The translations under genes were made by a program, and so were the position numbers. The notes under the pieces were generated by a model that saw nothing but the letters and a program-made list of their open reading frames with translations, was not told the DNA's origin and made no database searches. A stretch of DNA of 30,644 nt from a virus. Its lineage: Duplodnaviria > Caudoviricetes. Position 1 is the stretch's first letter, and each line of letters starts with the position of its first letter. Positions 3,257 through 30,644 of this stretch are shown here, in pieces. Where the stretch lies: IMG/VR virus record IMGVR_UViG_3300009183_000256, positions 1 to 30,644 of that record; one strand, written 5' to 3'.

Positions 3257-3329
3257 TACGTCACCGACTGAGAGTGGCTCTGTGCCTAGGCTGCTGTATT
3301 AACTGTAGTTAGTAGTGGAGTTTTAATCG

Positions 3330-3486
3330 TTACCCAGTATTATTGTTTTATTGCTCTTCTTGGGTTTTTATAGCTAATTATAATAATTACCCAGTGTTAT
3401 TGTTTTATTGCTCTTCTTGGGTTTTTATAGCTAATTATAATAATTACCCAGTGTTATTGTTTTATTGCCCTCCTTGGGGTTTTTAT
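3330..3486. repeat. 57-bp AT-rich tandem repeat, about 2.7 copies
   Basis: Unit TTACCCAGTRTTATTGTTTTATTGCTCTTCTTGGGTTTTTATAGCTAATTATAATAA starts at 3330, 3387 and 3444. Confidence 0.95.
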
Positions 3487-3490
3487 TGCT

Positions 3491-3545
3491 TGGGGGGTAG
3501 GGGGGTGGGGTACCATCCACCCGCCCCCAGCCTATACGTATAGGC
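3491..3545. other. G-tract/C-tract hairpin followed by a perfect 16-bp palindrome
   Basis: TGGGGGGTAGGGGGGTGGGGTACCATCCACCCGCCCCCA, then GCCTATACGTATAGGC at 3530-3545. Confidence 0.7.
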
Positions 3546-4399: not shown

Positions 4400-4477
4400 T
4401 AACGGCTACATTTACCCTGTTAACGGCTACATTTACCCTGTTAACGGCTACATTTACCCTGTTAACGGCTACTTTAC
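4400..4477 (+). repeat. Iterons of the plasmid replication origin (21-bp unit, 3 full + 1 partial)
   Basis: TAACGGCTACATTTACCCTGT at 4400, 4421 and 4442, partial at 4463. Directly upstream of rep, with AT-rich DNA at about 4330-4360. Confidence 0.92.
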
Positions 4478-5939: not shown

Positions 5940-6518
5940 CTAGCCGTAGCCACGCTTCAACCAACCCCTTAAGAAGATAGAATCTTTTGGATGAATAGTT
6001 GAAAGCGTTCGGTAATAGCCAGCGGCTTCGGACTTTAGAGCAGCCAGTAGGTCTGTGGGATCAGCTTGATTGATTGCCGTGATGTTTTGGGCGTCAAGGA
6101 TGCCGTTTTCGATGACTGTTACACCAGTAGATTTTAGTGCGCGTTGTAGCAATCGATTAGCCCATTTAGCACCAACGTTAACGCTGAGATCGAACACTTT
6201 TGCGGCCAAATGAACCTCTTGAATTTTTTCGTAGAGGTTGGCCTCCCAAAAATCACGTTTGTAGATTTCTTTCGCTTGGTCAATGGTAAGATTTTTGATG
6301 TCAAGATGTGGATAGCTTGCTTGGCTAATGCCGAACTTAGTAATGCCACCTGAATCATATTGGTTGACACTCAAACCACCTTCGTTTGCTAGCACGATAC
6401 TAACGGCATATTCAAATTTTTGAGCATTGTTTTCTGGTGGTGTTGCCGTATTTTGATCTGACAGATTTTTGCAACCTGCACAAAAAACAGACAAAAAAAC
6501 AACAAATAATTTTTTCAT
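5940..6518 (-). CDS. GH108 family muramidase with C-terminal peptidoglycan-binding domain and a lipoprotein-type signal peptide
   Basis: EGG...D-GG-TKFGI catalytic motif, FDLSVNVG, LLQRAL, FLRGWLKR. N-terminus MKKLFVVFLSVFCAGC. Confidence 0.92.
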   Translation of the reverse strand: MKKLFVVFLSVFCAGCKNLSDQNTATPPENNAQKFEYAVSIVLANEGGLSVNQYDSGGITKFGISQASYPHLDIKNLTIDQAKEIYKRDFWEANLYEKIQEVHLAAKVFDLSVNVGAKWANRLLQRALKSTGVTVIENGILDAQNITAINQADPTDLLAALKSEAAGYYRTLSTIHPKDSIFLRGWLKRGYG

Positions 6519-6563
6519 GACTACATAACTACATGACTACATGTAATCATGACTACATAAATA
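6516..6563. repeat. 8-bp-period array of CATGACTA-like units
   Basis: CATGACTA CATAACTA CATGACTA CATGTAAT CATGACTA CATAAATA. Confidence 0.85.
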
Positions 6564-6610
6564 GATGAACACAGCCATGCAAAAAAGTAGGAAAAATTGA
6601 TTGCTAGACA

Positions 6611-8080: not shown

Positions 8081-8455
8081 ATGAAAGATGCGAGCCATAC
8101 AAAAGCAGAGTTGTTGGATTTCGTTCGCCGGAAAGCAATCACTGGCATGAGTTCAAATCAAATAGCCGCTGACTACGCAAACGATTGGCATACTACATAT
8201 GATTTTGCCAAGCAGCGCATGAAAGAACCGCAATATCAAGAGGCAATTGAGGCCGGCCGTCAAACCGGATTAGGCCAAATTTGGGAAAAGCTGCACGATT
8301 TAGCAATTAGCAAAAACGATCAAGGCATTTTGTTATTGCTGGCCAAAGAACAATTGAAACTATTTGGCGGCCTTGATACCCAAGATTTGCTTGCAAAAAG
8401 CAATTTGACTAAAGACCAGCTAAAAAAAGTCCATGAGGTCATTCTTGGAAAATGA
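8081..8455 (+). CDS. terS: Probable terminase small subunit (124 aa)
   Basis: Overlaps terL. HTH-like N-terminal part (GMSSNQIA) and EAIEAGR...LAIS...LLAKEQL pattern. Start moved to MKDASH at 8081. Confidence 0.7.
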   Translation: MKDASHTKAELLDFVRRKAITGMSSNQIAADYANDWHTTYDFAKQRMKEPQYQEAIEAGRQTGLGQIWEKLHDLAISKNDQGILLLLAKEQLKLFGGLDTQDLLAKSNLTKDQLKKVHEVILGK

Positions 8456-9848
8456 GCTAAGCACCAATGAAATCATGCGTGAATTTTGGTACGCTCATCG
8501 GACTTTTGCGTATTATGAGCCGCATTTAAAGCAAAAGCAGTTTCATGACTTAGGTAAAACCGCCCGTGAACGTTTGTTTTTGGCTGGTAATCGCACGGGT
8601 AAAACCTATGGTGGAGCAATTGAAGTGTGTATGCACCTCAGTGGTGTTTACCCTGAGGATTGGTCAGGTTATCGTTTTGATAAACCCATTATGGCCTGGG
8701 CAATTGGCGTATCCAATGAAACCGTGCGTTCAACCTTACAGCAGTATTATATTGGGGATCCAAAGGCAGAAAAACCAGGTGGATTAGCACCAGATATCAT
8801 CGTATCAACAACAATGAGGCGGGGCTTAGCCGATGCGGTGGATACAGTGCGGGTACGCCACAGCAGCGGTGGTCAATCAATTCTGTGCTTTAAAAGCTAC
8901 CAGCAAGGCCGTGAAGCTTTACAAGGGGCGAGAGTCGATTTAATTCACTGTGATGAAGAACCGCCAAGTAACCTATATATGGAGCTACTGATGCGCCTGA
9001 TGAGTGTTGATGGGGTTTCAGATCCAGGTATGATGATGATTACGGCAACCCCATTATTGGGGATGACCAATACAATCTTACGCTTTACCAATGAAGATGA
9101 CGCAAGAGAAGGCGAAGCACTAAATGGCCGCGCGTTTGTGCAAGCAGGTTGGGATGACAACCCATATTTGAGCGAATCAGAAAAAAAACAACTGCGCTCT
9201 GGCATGTCCCCGCATGAATTGGAAGCTAGAGAACGCGGAATCCCTTCACTTGGCTCAGGCATGGTGTATCCTGTCTCAGAATCAGCGATCACGTGCGATC
9301 CGTTTGCAATACCTGAGTTTTGGCCGCGGGTTTATGGGCTGGACTTTGGCTGGACAGCTCCGACTGCAGCACTGTTTGGGGCGCATGACCGGGACAATGA
9401 CGTCATCTATTTTTATGCGGAGTATGCTTTGCCAGAACTCACACCCCAACAACATGCCACCAATCTTTTGAAACTTGGAGCAGATTGGATTCCAGGCGTT
9501 TTCGATCCTTCAGGATTGCAATCAAGTGTCAAAGACGGCGACAAATTAGCGCAAGTCTACAACGATGTTGGCCTGATATCTCTTTACAAAGCCGATAATG
9601 CGAAAGAGGCTGGTGTTGCTAAAACTTTGACGCGGATGCAAAACGGTCAGCTAAAACTTTTTAGCTCTCTCTCACAAACTTTAAAAGAGTTGCGCATTTA
9701 TGGGCGCGATGAAAATGGCATTATTCGAAAAGGTAATGACCATTTAATGGACTGTATGCGCTACACAGTCATGTCTGGCCTAGAAGTAGCGCGCCCACAG
9801 AAAATGCCTAGATATCATCAACCAAACCAGGCCGCTGGTTACATGTGA
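8433..9848 (+). CDS. terL: Terminase large subunit (P22-like)
   Basis: Walker A AGNRTGKT, FKSYQQGRE, Walker B IHCDEEPP, TATP, nuclease motifs GLDFG and DHLMDCMRY. Confidence 0.96.
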   Translation: MRSFLENELSTNEIMREFWYAHRTFAYYEPHLKQKQFHDLGKTARERLFLAGNRTGKTYGGAIEVCMHLSGVYPEDWSGYRFDKPIMAWAIGVSNETVRSTLQQYYIGDPKAEKPGGLAPDIIVSTTMRRGLADAVDTVRVRHSSGGQSILCFKSYQQGREALQGARVDLIHCDEEPPSNLYMELLMRLMSVDGVSDPGMMMITATPLLGMTNTILRFTNEDDAREGEALNGRAFVQAGWDDNPYLSESEKKQLRSGMSPHELEARERGIPSLGSGMVYPVSESAITCDPFAIPEFWPRVYGLDFGWTAPTAALFGAHDRDNDVIYFYAEYALPELTPQQHATNLLKLGADWIPGVFDPSGLQSSVKDGDKLAQVYNDVGLISLYKADNAKEAGVAKTLTRMQNGQLKLFSSLSQTLKELRIYGRDENGIIRKGNDHLMDCMRYTVMSGLEVARPQKMPRYHQPNQAAGYM

Positions 9849-9857
9849 GAGAAAAAA

Positions 9858-10052
9858 ATGGAAGCCCTAAAATCACAAGGAATCTTTAAAATAGTATTTT
9901 TGCTATTAATTGTAATATTACTCGCTGGTTGCGATCTACCGAAAATGTTTTTGGAAGAAGAAGGACGCAAAGTCATTGACGATGTGGTTGTTGAAGAAAC
10001 CAAAATTACCCCAGCACCCGCGGAAAAAACAATAACAACCAAAAGCCTTTGA
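9858..10052 (+). CDS. Small lipoprotein
   Basis: Hydrophobic stretch ending in the lipobox LLAGC. Confidence 0.7.
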   Translation: MEALKSQGIFKIVFLLLIVILLAGCDLPKMFLEEEGRKVIDDVVVEETKITPAPAEKTITTKSL

Positions 10053-10059
10053 GTTTTCT

Positions 10060-11190
10060 ATGCCATTGGTACCAGAATTTTATGACGGATCGGCATGGAA
10101 AACATTAAATTCTTCTAATGCCTCAGTATCATCTGTTGGCATCACAGCCGGGACGGGTATAAACGTTAGTGGGTCACCTATCACGACCAGTGGCACAATA
10201 TCTTTGACTTTGGGCAATATTCCTATTACAGCACTTTCTGGGTATCCTTCAGATTCGGTAAAGCTGCTGCAGGGTAACGGCGTTTGGGCGCAGCCAATTT
10301 TAAATAATATTGCATCGCCTACCTATGGTTCAACCTACGTTTTCAATGGGGCTAATCTTTCTAGTGTGCAGAGTTTGGACTGTCTCCGCTTAGTCGTAGG
10401 CGATGCTAGCGTGTTCCCGTTTTTCGCATTTCTCCCAACGCTTCAGGTTAATAATGGCTACGTTTTTTTAAACAGCACCCAAACAACGGTGAGCGGGTTT
10501 TCATATTATAAATATCAATTTGATTCGTGGGCGGCGGGTTACTGGGCAGGCGGGGGCTTGGCACTTTCAATGAAATGTGTGGGATCAATTGCGGCGGTTG
10601 AATTCGAGGCCACCTCTTCCATTAAAAAAAAATATATCTTAGAAAATTTAAACGCATTTTCCAGTGATCTAAAGAAAAAATTCGATTCTATTGATTTCGT
10701 CAAATATGCGTGGAAAGACCCAATGAAAGAAGGTGAAGGCCAGTTTTTTGGGTATATCGCGGAAAATGTGGCCGAACAATTTCCAGAATTAGTTGATATG
10801 AGCCACCTTGAGTTTGCTCCAAATATTTTTCAAATGGGAATTGCAAAGAAAACAAGCAAAAATGTCCACAAAATCTCTTGCAAAAACAGTTTTAATGCAA
10901 AAACTGGTGACAAAATACAGTTTTTTGTTGAAACAGAAAACCACAAAAAAACTTTTGAGGGAGTTGTTTGTGAAAAAATTGATGATTTTGAAATGGCCGT
11001 AGAATTCAACGAAAAATCACCACCAGACGGTGAAATTTTTGTGTACGGCGTTTTTGAGGAAGTGCCGTTAGTTTCAAAAACACGTTTCCATGACATGGTT
11101 TCAAGTCGTGTTAGAATTTTAATTGATGATTTTAAAATTTTAGCTGAAAAGGTAAATTTTTTAGAACTAAAAATTAAAAACATGATATAA
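10060..11190 (+). CDS. Tail fibre distal part with C-terminal intramolecular chaperone (peptidase S74-like)
   Basis: VSSVGITAGTGINVSGSPITTSGTI fibre repeat, TSSIKKK cleavage-like site, YAWKD, FGYIAENVAEQFPELV, terminal coiled coil. Confidence 0.8.
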   Translation: MPLVPEFYDGSAWKTLNSSNASVSSVGITAGTGINVSGSPITTSGTISLTLGNIPITALSGYPSDSVKLLQGNGVWAQPILNNIASPTYGSTYVFNGANLSSVQSLDCLRLVVGDASVFPFFAFLPTLQVNNGYVFLNSTQTTVSGFSYYKYQFDSWAAGYWAGGGLALSMKCVGSIAAVEFEATSSIKKKYILENLNAFSSDLKKKFDSIDFVKYAWKDPMKEGEGQFFGYIAENVAEQFPELVDMSHLEFAPNIFQMGIAKKTSKNVHKISCKNSFNAKTGDKIQFFVETENHKKTFEGVVCEKIDDFEMAVEFNEKSPPDGEIFVYGVFEEVPLVSKTRFHDMVSSRVRILIDDFKILAEKVNFLELKIKNMI

Positions 11191-11218
11191 TTTTAAAAAC
11201 TTAGCTTTCAAGAAAACA

Positions 11219-11449
11219 ATGGATTCAAATTTAATAGCAGCTGTAACGCCTAATCTGATTGGTCTAGAAGCGATAGCGACCATGCAATCTGATATGCAAT
11301 GGATCAATCAGTACGGCATGGCTTTGTTCAACTTTAGCGGAAGCGATACGGATCCAACATATGTAATGTTATTGAAAAATACAGTAGAAGCCTTGACGGC
11401 CTTAACTGTTGCAGTCAAAGCTTGCCAAGAGCAGCTACCTAAAAGTTAA
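11219..11449 (+). CDS. Small helical hypothetical protein, apparent paralog of 14209-14418
   Basis: Ungapped PN...L........D.Q...Q.....F...G similarity to the 14209 ORF. Confidence 0.7.
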   Translation: MDSNLIAAVTPNLIGLEAIATMQSDMQWINQYGMALFNFSGSDTDPTYVMLLKNTVEALTALTVAVKACQEQLPKS

Positions 11450-12252
11450 TCGGTATTTAGTCGCAACAGGCCTTCGGCGGGACTGGGGCGTGCTGCTGTG
11501 TTACCAGCGGGTATGGTCACGGCATTTCCTGTAAAAACAGGATTCGGCGCAAAAGTAGTGGCAACAGACCCGCTAATATTGTGAGAACCAGTGATATCTC
11601 CGCTCAACGTAACAGTCAAGCCATCGATACGTGTATTAGCGTTGTTCGCCGTCAGCTGAGCTGCCGTCCCCAGGGCTGCTGCTGCAGCAATGGATATGCT
11701 TATTTCAGCCCCGGGTGTTAGCGTGAACGGCAACATCTGAGCTGTGAAATATGCCGTTGATGCTACTGCTGCCGCGGCTATCGCCGAAGTTTCCGCAGCG
11801 GCTATCGCAACTGAAACAGTGGTAGGCGTGCAGTAATCCGAATCTGCTATAGCAATGTTAATCATGCCTGTAGAAGGCGCGCTTTTTAAAATGCCGCCGT
11901 CCAAATCTGACAAAGCCTGTGAATTTGGAAGAGCTAAGTCGGGCTGCTGCAATATATACTTTGATGTGTTCGGCGCGAAATTTCCTGGCAAAACAGTAGT
12001 TAAATTTCCAGAACTATTGTAAAGCAATCCGTTTGCTAAGTTGCTGAGTGCTTGGGCATTGGGAGCTTGAGAATTCGGCTGACCCAATATGAAGTCAGAT
12101 TGAAAAAAAGTTTTTAAGTCTAAGCGAATGTCTGTCAAAATTGGTGACGGCGTTGCTACACCTTGCCCATTACCAAACAGCACGTAGTTTTGATTGCAAA
12201 ATATTCTGCCAGTTACTGGCGATAGAACAATATCTGCTGGTGCAAATTTCAT
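11446..12252 (-). CDS. Tail fibre-like protein (268 aa), proximal piece
   Basis: Start moved to MKFAP at 12252 (ATGA overlap with the patatin stop). Duplicated ILxQPxxxxPNxQALSxLxxGxL module, TLSGDITGS, C-terminal IPAGNTAARP...GLLRLNTD. Confidence 0.7.
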   Translation of the reverse strand: MKFAPADIVLSPVTGRIFCNQNYVLFGNGQGVATPSPILTDIRLDLKTFFQSDFILGQPNSQAPNAQALSNLANGLLYNSSGNLTTVLPGNFAPNTSKYILQQPDLALPNSQALSDLDGGILKSAPSTGMINIAIADSDYCTPTTVSVAIAAAETSAIAAAAVASTAYFTAQMLPFTLTPGAEISISIAAAAALGTAAQLTANNANTRIDGLTVTLSGDITGSHNISGSVATTFAPNPVFTGNAVTIPAGNTAARPSPAEGLLRLNTD

Positions 12253-13343
12253 GCGTCCAAATGACCTATGAAATTTTGAATATTCAAGAAATCGTTTTGA
12301 TACCACGATTCGGCTTTTGTTGCATAATAATTCAAAATGGTCTCAGTTGTGTTGTCTAAGGTTGGCAACTGCTCAGGAGGTAAATCATCAAAAATTGGCT
12401 GATAACGATAATAATATAACTGATCTAATGTATATCGCGATATTAACTGCAATGTTTTAGCGACCGATTCTTCACTGCCGCCACCTGCCTGATTCACCAA
12501 TGCCCCTAAAATAGCAAGTGGATTTACTGTGTCTGTCAGATTTCTTTGCAAATATTCTCTAAACGAACTACCAAATAATTGATAAGATCCTTCTCCAGGC
12601 ACTAGTCCTGTCCCCAAAGACAAAATGCACACTCTATTTGCCGAAGGTTTTAGCATTTTGCCTAATGCCATTCCCATCAAAGCGGGGTTGTTTAAGTATA
12701 CACCACCATCACTGTACTGATGCCCCCCAAAAGAAACAGGATGACTATTTGAAGCAAGATACAGTGGTGCTGCACTTGTGGCTAATGCGACATTTTTGAT
12801 TAATTCATTTTGACCTATGAATTCTGTTTTTTGGTAATTGGAAAAAGAAACGAATGTGCCTGTATCAGTTTGATATGATGGAATCAAAACCTTGGTTTGA
12901 AGATCTGCTAACGTAGCCGTTCCAAAGAAATCACCCAAAGTCGCACTCAATAACCCCGTACCATACTTATCGGCATAAGTCCCACTAGAATTATAAAAAG
13001 GAATATCTAAACCGAGTAAAGTCAACTTATACGTTGCTGACGGTACTATGCCAGGTGTTGGGTACAATATGACAGGACCACCTGTTTCAGACCCCAAAGT
13101 AAAGATATATCGTCCTTTTTCCGTAAAAAATGATTCTATTTCACCGGGGGTTTTCCCAAAAGCAAAAGCAAGCCCCATGATGCCGCCAATAGACGTGCCA
13201 CAGATCACATCAAATCTTTGTGCAATGTCGCCCGGATTAATGCCCCACAATTCTATGAATTTGATCAAAAACTTCAAAGACAAATAGCCGCGCTCACCAC
13301 CGCCGTCCAAGGATAATATTCTGATTGTATTCGTGTCTGTCAT
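12249..13343 (-). CDS. Patatin-like phospholipase
   Basis: LSLDGGGERG, GTSIG (GxSxG), ATSAAP, DGGVYLNNP, ILSLGTG. Start taken as MTDTN (13355 is an alternative). Confidence 0.95.
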   Translation of the reverse strand: MTDTNTIRILSLDGGGERGYLSLKFLIKFIELWGINPGDIAQRFDVICGTSIGGIMGLAFAFGKTPGEIESFFTEKGRYIFTLGSETGGPVILYPTPGIVPSATYKLTLLGLDIPFYNSSGTYADKYGTGLLSATLGDFFGTATLADLQTKVLIPSYQTDTGTFVSFSNYQKTEFIGQNELIKNVALATSAAPLYLASNSHPVSFGGHQYSDGGVYLNNPALMGMALGKMLKPSANRVCILSLGTGLVPGEGSYQLFGSSFREYLQRNLTDTVNPLAILGALVNQAGGGSEESVAKTLQLISRYTLDQLYYYRYQPIFDDLPPEQLPTLDNTTETILNYYATKAESWYQNDFLNIQNFIGHLDA

Positions 13344-13469
13344 GGCATTAACCAATCAACAAGTGTGTTTTTGTTTTTTTCGGCATAAGATTTGTCAGGA
13401 CTGATTTCTATTATGACCCGATAAAGTACGCACCCTGATAAAAATAAAAAAAGAAAAAGACAAAAAAAG

Positions 13470-14135
13470 TTATGACCCATTCCAAAATCTCAGGGATCCG
13501 GCAGCTGCAACTCTTTGAGCGGCGGTGCCAATTGGTAGAATTACGCCTGCGGTGCCGGGAATTGTGGGATTAGACGCTAACCCAATAATTGGCACTGCCG
13601 CCGTTCCCGTTACAGCTATTTGGTTAGCTGTCCCTGTCACTGAATCTACTCCAAGATTAGCAAGGGCTGTAAAAACAATCGCGCTAGTGCCAATTGTGGT
13701 CATGGTGGCCGTTTGCGTCCAAGAAGTTACGGCGTTAATTGTTCCCGCAACGACCACTAAAGTATCACCAGGATTGATCAAATACACAGAATCGTAATCA
13801 GTGGTGCGGGTCAACACCCAGTTTGTCGATACAGAGCCAGCCGTTGTTAAGCTATAGACCCCGTTTTGAAAGGTGGTCGTCTGATCTTTGACCAGGATGC
13901 GTTGGCCAACCGAGGGCGTTACCCCATCAAGTGCAAAAGCCACCTGGGTTCCAGCATTGGTCAATGTCGCTCCTACGCCTGCCGTGCCATTAGCATAGGC
14001 AGCATTTAAAGTTGTGCCTATGGTTGCAACGACACAAGCCGTTTTAGCAACAACGTCAACGATGTTTTGACTAGCTAATTGATACCAATTAGATCCATCG
14101 CTATATTCAATTTTTGATGTTGGCAGTATTGACAT
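13470..14135 (-). CDS. Tail fibre-like protein (221 aa), middle piece
   Basis: LDGV...RILVKDQT...NGVY...WVLTR-TD domain typical of phage fibre or head-fibre proteins. VTGTANQI repeat. C-terminal LPIGTAAQR...GSLRF. Confidence 0.78.
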   Translation of the reverse strand: MSILPTSKIEYSDGSNWYQLASQNIVDVVAKTACVVATIGTTLNAAYANGTAGVGATLTNAGTQVAFALDGVTPSVGQRILVKDQTTTFQNGVYSLTTAGSVSTNWVLTRTTDYDSVYLINPGDTLVVVAGTINAVTSWTQTATMTTIGTSAIVFTALANLGVDSVTGTANQIAVTGTAAVPIIGLASNPTIPGTAGVILPIGTAAQRVAAAGSLRFWNGS

Positions 14136-14208
14136 TCTTATCTTTTTAATTTTTTAATTTTTTAATTATAATCTATAATGACTTATTATCAAAATAAGAA
14201 AACCAAAA

Positions 14209-14418
14209 GTGTCAATATTCCCTAACCGTCACCATTTAAAAGAACTAAGCGCAGCAATAGTAGATTTTCAATTTGTGCAGCAACAGGCTACTCAAGTTTT
14301 TAGCTACAATGGCGAAGCTACAGCGGATTTTGAAGAAGCAGCAAAGCAACTGGACATTCTGTTTAGCGATATTTTAACTCAGGTTCAGAGTTTAAAAACA
14401 AAAATTCCAGGTATTTAA
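14209..14418 (+). CDS. Small helical hypothetical protein, apparent paralog of 11219-11449
   Basis: GTG start, 7 bp before the portal start, motif similarity to the 11219 ORF. Confidence 0.65.
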   Translation: MSIFPNRHHLKELSAAIVDFQFVQQQATQVFSYNGEATADFEEAAKQLDILFSDILTQVQSLKTKIPGI

Positions 14419-14425
14419 AAATAAC

Positions 14426-16243
14426 ATGATTCTTTCCGCTTCTAGACAGAAAGCTTTAGACAAGGCTCAAGCGTATTTTAGAGCGGCAAACCTGCATCAA
14501 TCTACTGCGGAATTCAGATTAAAATGCATCAATGATTATGGTTTTTACGATGGTACAGGCCAGTGGGAAGCAAAAGACTTAGAGATGTTGGCCGAGCGGC
14601 AGCAATTACCGATTACAGTCAATATCTGTAAAGGCTTCATCGATAATCTTTCCGGTGTCGAAATCCAATCACGCTATCGTACCGCCTGTCGCAATGATTC
14701 AAGCAATCCAGAAGATGACAGGCTCGCTGAAGCCTTAACCCATCTGTTGTTTTATGTTCAAGAACACCAAGAAATACCCTATAAAGGCAGTTTGAAATTT
14801 AAGGATTCCCTAATTTGTGGAATTGGCTGGAGTCATCTTTGTCAAGAAGACGGCAAGATTTTTTATGACTACGTTCATCCATTCAATGTTATCCCGGATC
14901 CGGACGATCTCACCCCACAATATACTGCAATGAAATACGTCTGCCGAAAATTTTGGATGCGACCAGATATGGTCAAAGATCGCTGGCCAAAAGTTGCAGC
15001 AGATATTGATTTTGGCGGTGAGTTTGATTATTACCAGGGGCTTTTTAGCCCTGAAATAATGGATCGCAACTCGACCTATACTGATTATGGTGGCTATACC
15101 GGCGCAAATGGCAGCAGGGTACTGGTGGTAGAAGTCCAATACAAGATACCGCATAAAATCTACAGTGGCACCGATAGTAATGGGCGATCTTTTGAGACTT
15201 TTAAACTAGATGAGGCGGAAGAAATAGCCCAAGGGGAAATTGAAGAAAGAAAGGGTGAGCGCATCATGCGTACCTTGTTTTTAGACAATACCCTGCTTGA
15301 ACATGCCCCCTTAGATGCAACTTTTCCCGATCAACAAGACTTTAGTTATATTCCAATTGTCTTTCAGCGGCGTTTTCAAACAGGTGTCCCATATGGATTG
15401 CTTGATGGGATGAAGGATATTCAGCGCGATTGTAACGTTAGGGTCACTAAATCAGTTTATGCGATTAACTCAGCGCGTTTAATTTTTGAAGGTAATCCAT
15501 TACCAGGTCAAAGCATAGAAAAGATTCAAGAACAACTAAAACGTATTGATTCTGTAGTCGTTTTGCCTAAAGATTCTAAGTTCCAATTCTCAAGTAATGC
15601 CCAGCTTGGCGAAGAGCAGCTTAAAATTGTTGAGCTTTACCTTAAGCTAATCCAGCGCGTGACTGGCATCCATGACGAAATGCTTGGAATTCAAACCAAC
15701 GCTACTAGCGGACTTTCGCAAAACATTCGCCAAGTAAACAGTGTTCGCAACAACGTGTTCGCATTTGATAGCTTTTCTCAGATGAAAAAGCGCGAGACAC
15801 GTTTTGTCTTAAACATGATTCAATCAAGCGGAATGCAAAACTTAGCTATCCAGATTTTGAACCCCCCTGAAAAACAAACAATAATTGTAAATTTGGTGAG
15901 AGAGATTAATGGCCAGCCCGTGATCTTCAATGACATTAGTAACCTGCCGATTTCTTTGTACATTGAAGAGGTGCCAGATTACCAAAGTTCATTTGCTGAA
16001 CAGAAGGCAACCTTTGAATCGCTGCTGTCTAATGCCCATGCCCAGTGGTTAATGCTGTCTCCAGAACTGCTACGCCGGATGGGAGTTCGAAACCCAGAAC
16101 AAATTGCTCAAGAAATGCAGCAGGCGATGCAACAAAAAACGATGATGGAACAAGGGGTTGCTGGCCGCGGCGAACCTTTTAGCCCAGATGGCCAGCAGCA
16201 ACAGCCTGGCTCTCCAATACCACAGATGCAAGCACCCGTATGA
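14426..16243 (+). CDS. Portal protein (P22-like)
   Basis: FYDG-GQW...ITVN...G-E...R N-terminal pattern, PYGLLDGMKDIQR, VTGI-DEMLG, Gln-rich tail, 605 aa. Confidence 0.9.
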   Translation: MILSASRQKALDKAQAYFRAANLHQSTAEFRLKCINDYGFYDGTGQWEAKDLEMLAERQQLPITVNICKGFIDNLSGVEIQSRYRTACRNDSSNPEDDRLAEALTHLLFYVQEHQEIPYKGSLKFKDSLICGIGWSHLCQEDGKIFYDYVHPFNVIPDPDDLTPQYTAMKYVCRKFWMRPDMVKDRWPKVAADIDFGGEFDYYQGLFSPEIMDRNSTYTDYGGYTGANGSRVLVVEVQYKIPHKIYSGTDSNGRSFETFKLDEAEEIAQGEIEERKGERIMRTLFLDNTLLEHAPLDATFPDQQDFSYIPIVFQRRFQTGVPYGLLDGMKDIQRDCNVRVTKSVYAINSARLIFEGNPLPGQSIEKIQEQLKRIDSVVVLPKDSKFQFSSNAQLGEEQLKIVELYLKLIQRVTGIHDEMLGIQTNATSGLSQNIRQVNSVRNNVFAFDSFSQMKKRETRFVLNMIQSSGMQNLAIQILNPPEKQTIIVNLVREINGQPVIFNDISNLPISLYIEEVPDYQSSFAEQKATFESLLSNAHAQWLMLSPELLRRMGVRNPEQIAQEMQQAMQQKTMMEQGVAGRGEPFSPDGQQQQPGSPIPQMQAPV

Positions 16244-22173: not shown

Positions 22174-23343
22174 ATGCCCTTATTACCCACTGACAATAGC
22201 CGTCCGGACTTGCCTTATGTGCCAGCCCAATCGCTGCCTAATAATGCGCGCTTTAATATCTTAACCACAACTAAAAGGCCACCCACCGCCGAAATGCTTG
22301 ATGCGGAGTTCAATGCGTTGACCGATGATGTTAATATGTTGGCCAAAGGAATTAACGACGTCCAGGTCGGAAGTATTCCAGGTAGTGATGTAGAGCTTAA
22401 TGCTAATAAACTGCTGAAAACCGATGGCGAGGGCAACCTGAGCTGGACGTTGATAACTAACACTGAGCTGGAACCGGGAGCCGTGAAGGAACGGGGCTTA
22501 GCCGAGAGAAGTGTCACCGAAAAAAAAATTGATGATGGTGCGGTAACTAACGCTAAGCTTAGTACCGGGGCGGTGGAAACGCTACAAATTGCTGACGGGG
22601 CGGTGAAAACGCTAAAAATTGAGGACAAGGCGGTGAAAACGGAAAAAATTGAGGACAAGGCGGTAACTAACGCTAAGCTTAGTAACGGGGCGGTGAAAAC
22701 GCTACAAATTGCTGACGGGGCGGTGAAAACGGAAAAAATTGAGGACAAGGCGGTGACAACGGAAAAAATTGAGGACAAGGCGGTGACTACCCAAAAGCTG
22801 AGCTCATCTGGTGGGCTTCCTGGTTCGGTTTTAACCGCTGGATCGGGATCTTCAGTTAACTGGTCGGCGATTCCAACAACTGGCAAGATTTTACAAATTG
22901 CCTCATATGTTACTAGCAATAAAACATTCTCAAGTGGGGAAGAAAAGAAGTGTGTTTTTAATCCTCACTTTGCCTTAACCCTCACTCCTAAATCTAAAAC
23001 GAGTTTTATCGGCTTATTTATTACAATGCAGGCCTCACCATTAACCGTGCCAGGCTGGGTTTCTGCGAGGCTTTATAGGAATAATACAATCTATATTCCC
23101 CTTGACTTTAATTCAAGGGGAGCAATGTTTTCTAAGTATATAACGGCCACAGATACAAGTAGGATTGGCCTCACCTGTTTTAGTGGATTTTTTCAAGATA
23201 CGATTGATAGACAGAATTTAGACTCAATTAATTATGAGATAGTTACTTTGGAAAATGTAATTTTAAATGGCGATCAAAATGCGACTGGTAGCTTAAGTTA
23301 TACAACGATCAGCTCAATCTATGGAATAGAAGTGCAAATATGA
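22174..23343 (+). CDS. Tail fibre with 10-aa [GK]AVxxxKIxD repeats
   Basis: N-terminal anchor-like LDAEFNAL, LKTDG-GNLSW, repeats, GKILQI head domain. Confidence 0.8.
   Translation: MPLLPTDNSRPDLPYVPAQSLPNNARFNILTTTKRPPTAEMLDAEFNALTDDVNMLAKGINDVQVGSIPGSDVELNANKLLKTDGEGNLSWTLITNTELEPGAVKERGLAERSVTEKKIDDGAVTNAKLSTGAVETLQIADGAVKTLKIEDKAVKTEKIEDKAVTNAKLSNGAVKTLQIADGAVKTEKIEDKAVTTEKIEDKAVTTQKLSSSGGLPGSVLTAGSGSSVNWSAIPTTGKILQIASYVTSNKTFSSGEEKKCVFNPHFALTLTPKSKTSFIGLFITMQASPLTVPGWVSARLYRNNTIYIPLDFNSRGAMFSKYITATDTSRIGLTCFSGFFQDTIDRQNLDSINYEIVTLENVILNGDQNATGSLSYTTISSIYGIEVQI
22477..22806 (+). repeat. 30-bp coding tandem repeat (about 11 units) with a 120-bp higher-order duplication
   Basis: GAVTNAKLST-GAVETLQIAD-GAVKTLKIED-KAVKTEKIED, then KAVTNAKLSN-GAVKTLQIAD-GAVKTEKIED-KAVTTEKIED. 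Confidence 0.9.
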
Positions 23344-30490: not shown

Positions 30491-30644
30491 TTTTTGCCTT
30501 TTTTATACGCCACTCGCCGATTGTTTTCGCCTTTTTTATACGCCACTCGCCGATTGTTTTCGCCTTTTTTATACGCCACTCGCCGATTGTTTTTGCCTTT
30601 TTTATACGCCACTCGCCGATTGTTTTTGCCTTTTTTATACGCCA
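30491..30644. repeat. 33-bp tandem repeat, at least 4.6 copies, truncated by the window end
   Basis: TTTTTTATACGCCACTCGCCGATTGTTTTYGCC, with ATACGCC at 30505, 30538, 30571, 30604 and 30637. Confidence 0.95.

Follow-up and report, generated by a model that had tools for sequence, protein, structure and literature searches.

The DNA analysed here (the window) is the whole of virus record IMGVR_UViG_3300009183_000256, 30,644 bases, and encodes a podovirus-type virion with a large terminase, a P22-like portal, a major capsid protein, an SU10-type adaptor, a tail-fibre gene and ejection-like proteins. Between the terminase and the portal, outside the tail module, lies a cassette of fibre genes C, B and A, whose ends carry complementary halves of one fibre motif: a first half or 'plug' (P-x-G...R...G-x-x-R-x-N) and a second half or 'socket' (E-x-x-D-G-x-x-W). 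The coordinates and termini of the three genes were as given in the sequence-only reading that pointed out the split, in which a patatin gene between B and C went unmentioned. The genes and their parts are as follows.

11446–12252, minus strand: gene C, 268 amino acids, likely the virion-proximal fibre segment, ending in the first half-motif (profile match to LME-1 orf22)
11446–11511, minus strand: plug of C, P-x-G...R...G-x-x-R-x-N plus two residues and the stop, prism strand 1 (alignment)
13470–14135, minus strand: gene B, 221 amino acids, middle segment that opens with a socket and closes with a plug (sequence and profile matches)
14085–14120, minus strand: socket of B, E-x-x-D-G-x-x-W, strands 2–3 (alignment)
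13470–13535, minus strand: plug of B, first half-motif, stop five residues after Arg (alignment)
10060–11190, plus strand: gene A, 376 amino acids, distal tip with a socket at its start and an S74 chaperone at its end (Pfam, likeness to fusion protein P0211)
10060–10098, plus strand: socket of A, second half-motif (head shared with the genes that follow B in relatives)
10615–11190, plus strand: S74-type intramolecular chaperone of A (Pfam PF13884, above cut-off)

All three genes were intact. Exact C, B and A proteins were found on 24, 19 and 17 contigs, respectively, from three sources, and these contigs may share a single sample or site of origin. Over the stretches fetched, cassette included, the window was 100% identical to a record of 40,410 bases that has direct terminal repeats. 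On these two grounds misassembly of one continuous gene is unlikely. Where the motif is continuous, which the sequence-only reading gave as its normal form in phage fibres, 61 of 62 distinct copies in the fetched loci had the N-x6-E spacing. The S74 chaperone at the end of A was borne out by a Peptidase_S74 match at residues 191–245 (E 9.5e-6) and by Ser186 and Lys191, which have the Ser-x4-Lys spacing of the self-cleavage dyad known from K1F endosialidase.

Relatives keep the same split points. The search for B relatives was confined to lengths of 121–387 amino acids and found 619, of which 120 were listed. E-x-x-D-G/S occurred within the first 70 residues in all 120 listed, and in 115 the invariant Arg was followed by exactly five residues and then the stop (six in 4, fourteen in 1), which puts conservation of the half-motifs beyond chance. 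E10 and D13 were invariant in 56 aligned B proteins. Among 62 C relatives, 48 stopped 4–6 residues after Arg, 2 extended further and 12 were without the motif, 9 of the latter having another conserved motif at the end, as judged by eye. P248, G250, R255, G261, R264 and N266 were invariant in 33 C proteins, mostly chosen for having this end. Longer B relatives numbered 2,854, and 9 of the 120 listed matched the motif pattern, all 9 in continuous form. In the locus survey 33 loci had split ends (39 distinct) and 53 had continuous copies (60), and the two forms never occurred in the same locus. The split fibre motif was confirmed as real and conserved.

A natural intact copy of the motif was modelled with AlphaFold2 (predicted local distance difference test, pLDDT, 88.8) and gave strands at residues 28–32, 37–41 and 47–51. 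The genes end at position 35 of this copy, in the predicted loop between strands 1 and 2, so that in the model C and B stop just past strand 1 and B and A open with strands 2–3. R30, E39 and W47 were invariant across 49 intact copies, and the predicted strand limits would place R30 opposite E39. After the split R is invariant in the C and B tails and E in the B heads, so the pair is kept on different chains; the separate chains are cut, as had been claimed, at complementary halves of one motif, strand 1 against strands 2–3. The best fold matches were the CBA120 TSP4 anchor (7RFO/7REJ, probability 0.97–0.98), Mtd (1YU0–4), TSP3 and the collagen XV/XVIII trimerisation domains. Those of TSP4/Mtd type ranked at the top with TM-scores (template modelling) of 0.62–0.66 and, against this, E-values of 0.08–0.1. 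Structural comparison with Mtd gave Z 4.5 and a root-mean-square deviation of 2.3 over 43 aligned residues, other Z values being lower, and the intact motif also matched TSP4 residues 54–79 in sequence (E 0.016). Pfam Mtd_N (PF18454) matched none of the 49 intact copies at E 0.1, nor A, B or C. The intact motif is predicted to be a three-stranded trimer domain of the Mtd/CBA120 TSP4-anchor beta-prism type; that the fibre chains are homotrimers is suggested by their homologues and by S74.

In relatives the order is collinear C-B-A, as had been proposed, mostly patatin-C-B-A, on at least two unrelated phage backbones and including Ca. Megaera plasmids. Relatives of A directly follow B, and C-like and B-like parts are collinear in the single chain of the solved LME-1 tail fibre. 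At 22 junctions the halves were 46–174 nucleotides apart, at offsets of 0, 1 and 2 modulo 3 and with separate starts. The only non-collinear copy among the loci read is that of the window's phage, with B before C and A on the other strand; reasoning from coordinates, this arrangement could be derived from the collinear one by two inversions that overlap. The scrambled order uncouples joining from gene adjacency. That the split is not a simple frameshift holds both for the scrambled halves here and for the relatives, whose gaps fall in all three frames. Direct or inverted repeats at the four boundaries did not exceed 11 nucleotides (the longest match was AT-rich), and a scan of the whole window gave no inversion repeats. 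Joining at the DNA or RNA level, which the sequence-only reading had allowed, is disfavoured by the scrambled order, the gaps in all frames and the absence of boundary repeats over 11 nucleotides (frameshifting, hopping and splicing by the first two), and protein-level joining is left as the remaining simple route.

A fused homologue was also present, as B+A with intact motif (P0211), where a C-B-A fusion had been envisaged. P0211 consists of B (48% over 208), two intact motifs and A (41% over 381 columns) with S74, and still has a free socket at its start. It is known as a protein on 8 contigs, and no locus for it was found in viral contigs. Together with loci L286 and L291 it shows that fused and split forms interconvert. 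Two B relatives, P0083 and P0093, have a duplicated core (367–371 amino acids) and retain both split ends; shaft length therefore varies within B. The C-A or C-Bn-A variants that had been suggested found no direct support; a type-1 C end (the plug described above) was always followed by B, and never directly by A, wherever neighbours were readable.

We consider it probable that C, B and A trimers join end to end, non-covalently, by rebuilding the split beta-prism domain, to give an anchor-shaft-tip fibre. The C (or B) trimer would end in three unpaired strands and the B (or A) trimer would open with three hairpins; docking would complete three sheets and restore the Arg-Glu cross-strand pair. 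The S74 chaperone of A would fold the tip and then cleave off, and the N-terminus of C would bind the virion.

A second joint, unrelated to the first, was found in the family. Its tail is a W-D-L-x-x-D-type motif at the end of some C proteins and of some ORFs (open reading frames) of 43–61 amino acids that follow B; the gene after such a tail opens with an I-x-P-x-L-x-I-L-G-type motif in place of a type-1 head (loci L069, 8690–8836; L070, 8674–8805; L124, 3263–3448; L277, 8674–8859; L291, 2853–7109; L296, 3082–6791; also L077 and L221). In L291 one protein has the second unit both intact, in its interior, and split, at its end. The tiny adapter ORFs comprise hardly anything beyond a type-1 head plus a type-2 tail and would convert type 1 to type 2. 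Tails and heads were classed in 303 loci, many of them redundant, which gave 69 distinct gene ends. Tail and next head were of the same type in 63 of the 69 (type 1 to type 1 in 52, type 2 to type 2 in 11), none crossed types, 5 had no recognised head and 1 was truncated. Of these five, two were the ends of the window's phage, one had a variant head missed by the pattern (L288), and two were probably false matches (L171, L135). Part of this matching comes from co-inheritance, but adapters consisting of one head and one tail are difficult to account for without binding. It is a tentative proposal, held with slightly less than even confidence, that the fibres of phages of protist endosymbionts are assembled from a set of separately encoded trimers with at least two orthogonal split-domain connectors, adapter genes and any genomic order. 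If so, tips and shaft length would change by swapping whole genes.

Several observations weigh against end-to-end joining through the split prism. The fold matches are weak by E-value (0.08–0.1) and Z (<5). Restricting the search to B lengths of 121–387 amino acids favours like-ended proteins, and the stops of the control gene, patatin, were also fairly fixed (15 of 30 identical), so that a fixed stop taken alone is weak proof. The split counts are not independent. A quick tree built from 87 B cores, namely every split one (23) and 64 of the 197 others, placed the 23 split rows in one branch together with 1 unsplit row (Shimodaira–Hasegawa-like approximate likelihood ratio test 97); split loci are essentially that branch, and neighbouring ends are co-inherited too. 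The split may well be one old event, long retained, which the counts would reflect. Ratios of nonsynonymous to synonymous substitution (dN/dS) of the four half-motifs (0.08–0.13) were given no weight, as the proportion of synonymous differences (pS, 0.71–0.74) was saturated, the segments had been picked by motif and a few were misclassed. The variable-length leaders of B heads must point away from the joint, and order specificity is unexplained, C and B tails being nearly identical in some phages.

The strongest rival, itself unlikely, is that the halves are independent end caps left by an old gene fission, the first half sealing the C-terminus of one trimer and the second beginning the next, with the proteins folding alone and docking by surface contact or sitting at separate virion sites. 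The tree is compatible with a single origin of the split, co-inheritance can account for matched neighbours, and stop positions are often conserved anyway, as the patatin control indicates. An end cap does not account for a lone edge strand and its cross-strand partner keeping invariant R and E on different chains, nor for adapter ORFs of 43–61 amino acids without an evident stand-alone role, nor for the interconversion of fused and split forms.

The family may instead work as proposed while the scrambled cassette of the window was recently broken and no longer makes a fibre, which we regard as improbable. It is the sole non-collinear copy among the loci read, close backbone relatives can be without a cassette at this site, and one database variant of C (P0001) is without the end motif. 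Against this, all ORFs are open, all key residues and the S74 dyad are present, a good promoter-like site precedes B, and the same ends recur on 17–24 contigs.

Spacing bears on a further rival, covalent joining after translation, in which leaders would be trimmed and a C-terminus ligated to the new N-terminus of the next chain. The claim that joining the halves restores N-x6-E holds in that a tail (three residues after N) and the shortest heads (three before E) sum to exactly six; it holds for B only if its five-residue leader is ignored. Across the family B-head leaders vary, the motif beginning at residue 9–51, and are conserved as protein, and the C of the window is one residue shorter than the usual C end. 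An initial Met is removed when the second residue is small, as it is in the short heads that carry one extra Met, and this Met would accordingly be lost; the pattern could also reflect turn preferences. No ligase, and no protease except S74, was seen in the cassette, the second position after Arg is occupied by N or W, tail length ranges from 4 to 6, and the leaders are without a clear common cleavage site. Ligation is accordingly given very little credence.

Least likely of all, by a narrow step, is joining at the nucleic-acid level, by ribosomal hopping or splicing in collinear relatives or by DNA inversion here through a tyrosine recombinase: relatives are collinear, the window encodes a 192-amino-acid tyrosine recombinase, and the orientation of A lets one inversion place it behind C or B (by coordinates), but C lies downstream of B with A on the opposite strand, the 46–174-nucleotide gaps fall in every frame and showed no common signal on visual inspection, the four boundaries have no direct or inverted repeat longer than 11 nucleotides, and leaders are conserved as protein. 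Two particular forms are disfavoured: a shufflon or invertible fibre switch, for which the required inverted repeats at segment ends were not found (longest match 11 nucleotides), and a programmed frameshift or hop, for which there was no fixed offset between co-oriented frames, the halves being scrambled here and at all three offsets in relatives.

Around and within the cassette, and in the tail module, lie the following further features.

8433–9848, plus strand: large terminase, left flank of the cassette (family/profile match)
9858–10052, plus strand: ORF of 64 amino acids, with relatives between terminase and patatin in L198 and L288 (homology)
11219–11449, plus strand: ORF of 76 amino acids, following A-type genes in relatives (homology)
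12249–13355, minus strand: patatin-like phospholipase between B and C, its stop overlapping the ATG of C (PF01734, E 1.9e-24)
14165–14192, minus strand: sigma-70-like site (11 of 12 positions), 30 nucleotides upstream of B, candidate promoter of B-patatin-C
14209–14418, plus strand: ORF of 69 amino acids, whose relatives lie directly before the portal and also resemble the 76-amino-acid ORF (homology)
14426–16243, plus strand: P22-like portal, right flank of the cassette (family/profile match)
22174–23343, plus strand: separate T7-like fibre gene, part of the tail module (phrog_892 tail fiber, E 4e-26)

Sigma-70-like sites numbered 10 in the window against 10.7 in shuffles and as a set were not above chance. 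The patatin gene accompanies the cassette in nearly all relatives and on both phage backbones and may be a virion or host-membrane accessory. The C profile matched the LME-1 tail fibre orf22 at residues 147–289 (E 4e-10), and the N-terminus of C also opens a 1220-amino-acid single-gene fibre in L136; this N-terminus matched no named family or solved structure in family, profile, structure and atlas searches. The B core matched LME-1 orf22 at 258–418 (E 2e-38) and the capsid decoration protein 9NX3 (E 1e-7); a fold search with a B monomer model gave nothing clear, and the atlas search named no family for B. No relative of A was found in the PDB. By profile comparison the fibre domains of the cassette are common to podophage tail fibres (T7/LME-1 type). 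The label of tail fibre is uncertain, as the phage has the T7-like fibre gene at 22174–23343, which follows the tail genes, and the terminase–portal interval, the one site considered, is without a cassette in 5 of the 14 backbone relatives examined (from 19 loci). Probably the cassette encodes an accessory fibre whose tips can be exchanged. Loci L281 and L293 are one 59-kb contig with two portal regions, one with the cassette and one without. In L136 (7818–8588) a B-type core is inserted inside a homologue of the small portal-adjacent gene, beside the 1220-amino-acid fibre.

Relatives of B occur in Ca. Megaera (Rickettsiaceae) genomes and plasmids, and the top plasmid match of the portal was to Caedibacter taeniospiralis (40%); a bacterial endosymbiont of protists is therefore the likely host. 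The window also encodes a Rep3 initiator alongside the tyrosine recombinase. Direct repeats of 33, 57, 21 and 8 nucleotides were found at 30491–30644, 3321–3491, 4400–4475 and 6507–6573, and the 21-nucleotide set lies immediately upstream of the Rep3 gene and is iteron-like, which suggests a phage-plasmid. Positions 1–1350 hold at least five short paralogous minus-strand genes in tandem, starting MTKLxEL and rich in Ala, Glu and Trp, with a common sequence upstream of each (repeat families D2, D5 and D9). A major facilitator superfamily transporter gene lies at the phage end (28508–29818), and the tail-module fibre gene has an internal repeat of 30-nucleotide period (22523–22792).

Multi-chain fibres, docking peptides and strand complementation in pili are already known. 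Chaperone-usher pili assemble by donor-strand complementation and type V pili by strand exchange. As there, an incomplete fold would be filled in by a terminal strand of the neighbouring chain, and the geometry of the cut and its spacing is compatible with this; the pilin fold is Ig-like, whereas here it would be a trimeric prism with simultaneous exchange of three strands about the threefold axis, and no pilus usher or chaperone was found among the 27 window ORFs scanned. The three-stranded fold predicted for the intact motif is that of the Bordetella phage Mtd N-terminus (1YU0), the CBA120 TSP4 anchor (7REJ/7RFO) and TSP3 (5W6F). The TSP4 region is described as a triple beta-helix, after which three-stranded sheets make up a beta-prism II (PMC8825819). 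In those proteins the domain lies within one chain; here strand 1 and strands 2–3 are in different genes, and there is no Mtd_N Pfam match. T4 relatives have distal fibre subunits that bear S74, and the T4 long tail fibre gp34-gp35-gp36-gp37 is one fibre made from several chains in series (PMC12143355); no statement that a T4 joint is a split domain was seen, whereas here the same joint is used twice and interconverts with fused forms. Branched receptor-binding proteins of KP32 type join separate genes through a branching domain and a short conserved terminal docking peptide (PMC13352976) and so likewise have exchangeable parts, but dock sideways on an intact branching domain, where a coaxial joint from domain halves is proposed here. 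Legionella phage LME-1 orf22, a podophage tail fibre seen by cryo-electron microscopy (PMC12407071; 9EFK), has a C-like part (147–289) and then a B-like part (258–418), as in the order C-B, but is a single chain, with no match to the prism motif between the two parts. No description of a split beta-prism joint was found in the literature searched, whose coverage was thin for subscription papers (the primary MAnkyphage report lay outside it) and for supplements.

Coaxial joining of multi-chain phage fibres is poorly resolved, and a 45-residue domain, whole or split between trimers, is a small testable joint. It would explain how fibre genes split, fuse and exchange tips without in-frame recombination, and it warns annotators that short 'hypothetical' genes of this kind are not fragments of a broken gene. 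Protein engineering would gain a ready threefold-symmetric coupling tool from two matched connector types and their natural adapters. To the known systems the window and its relatives add the scrambled order, the B+A fusion and the second joint.

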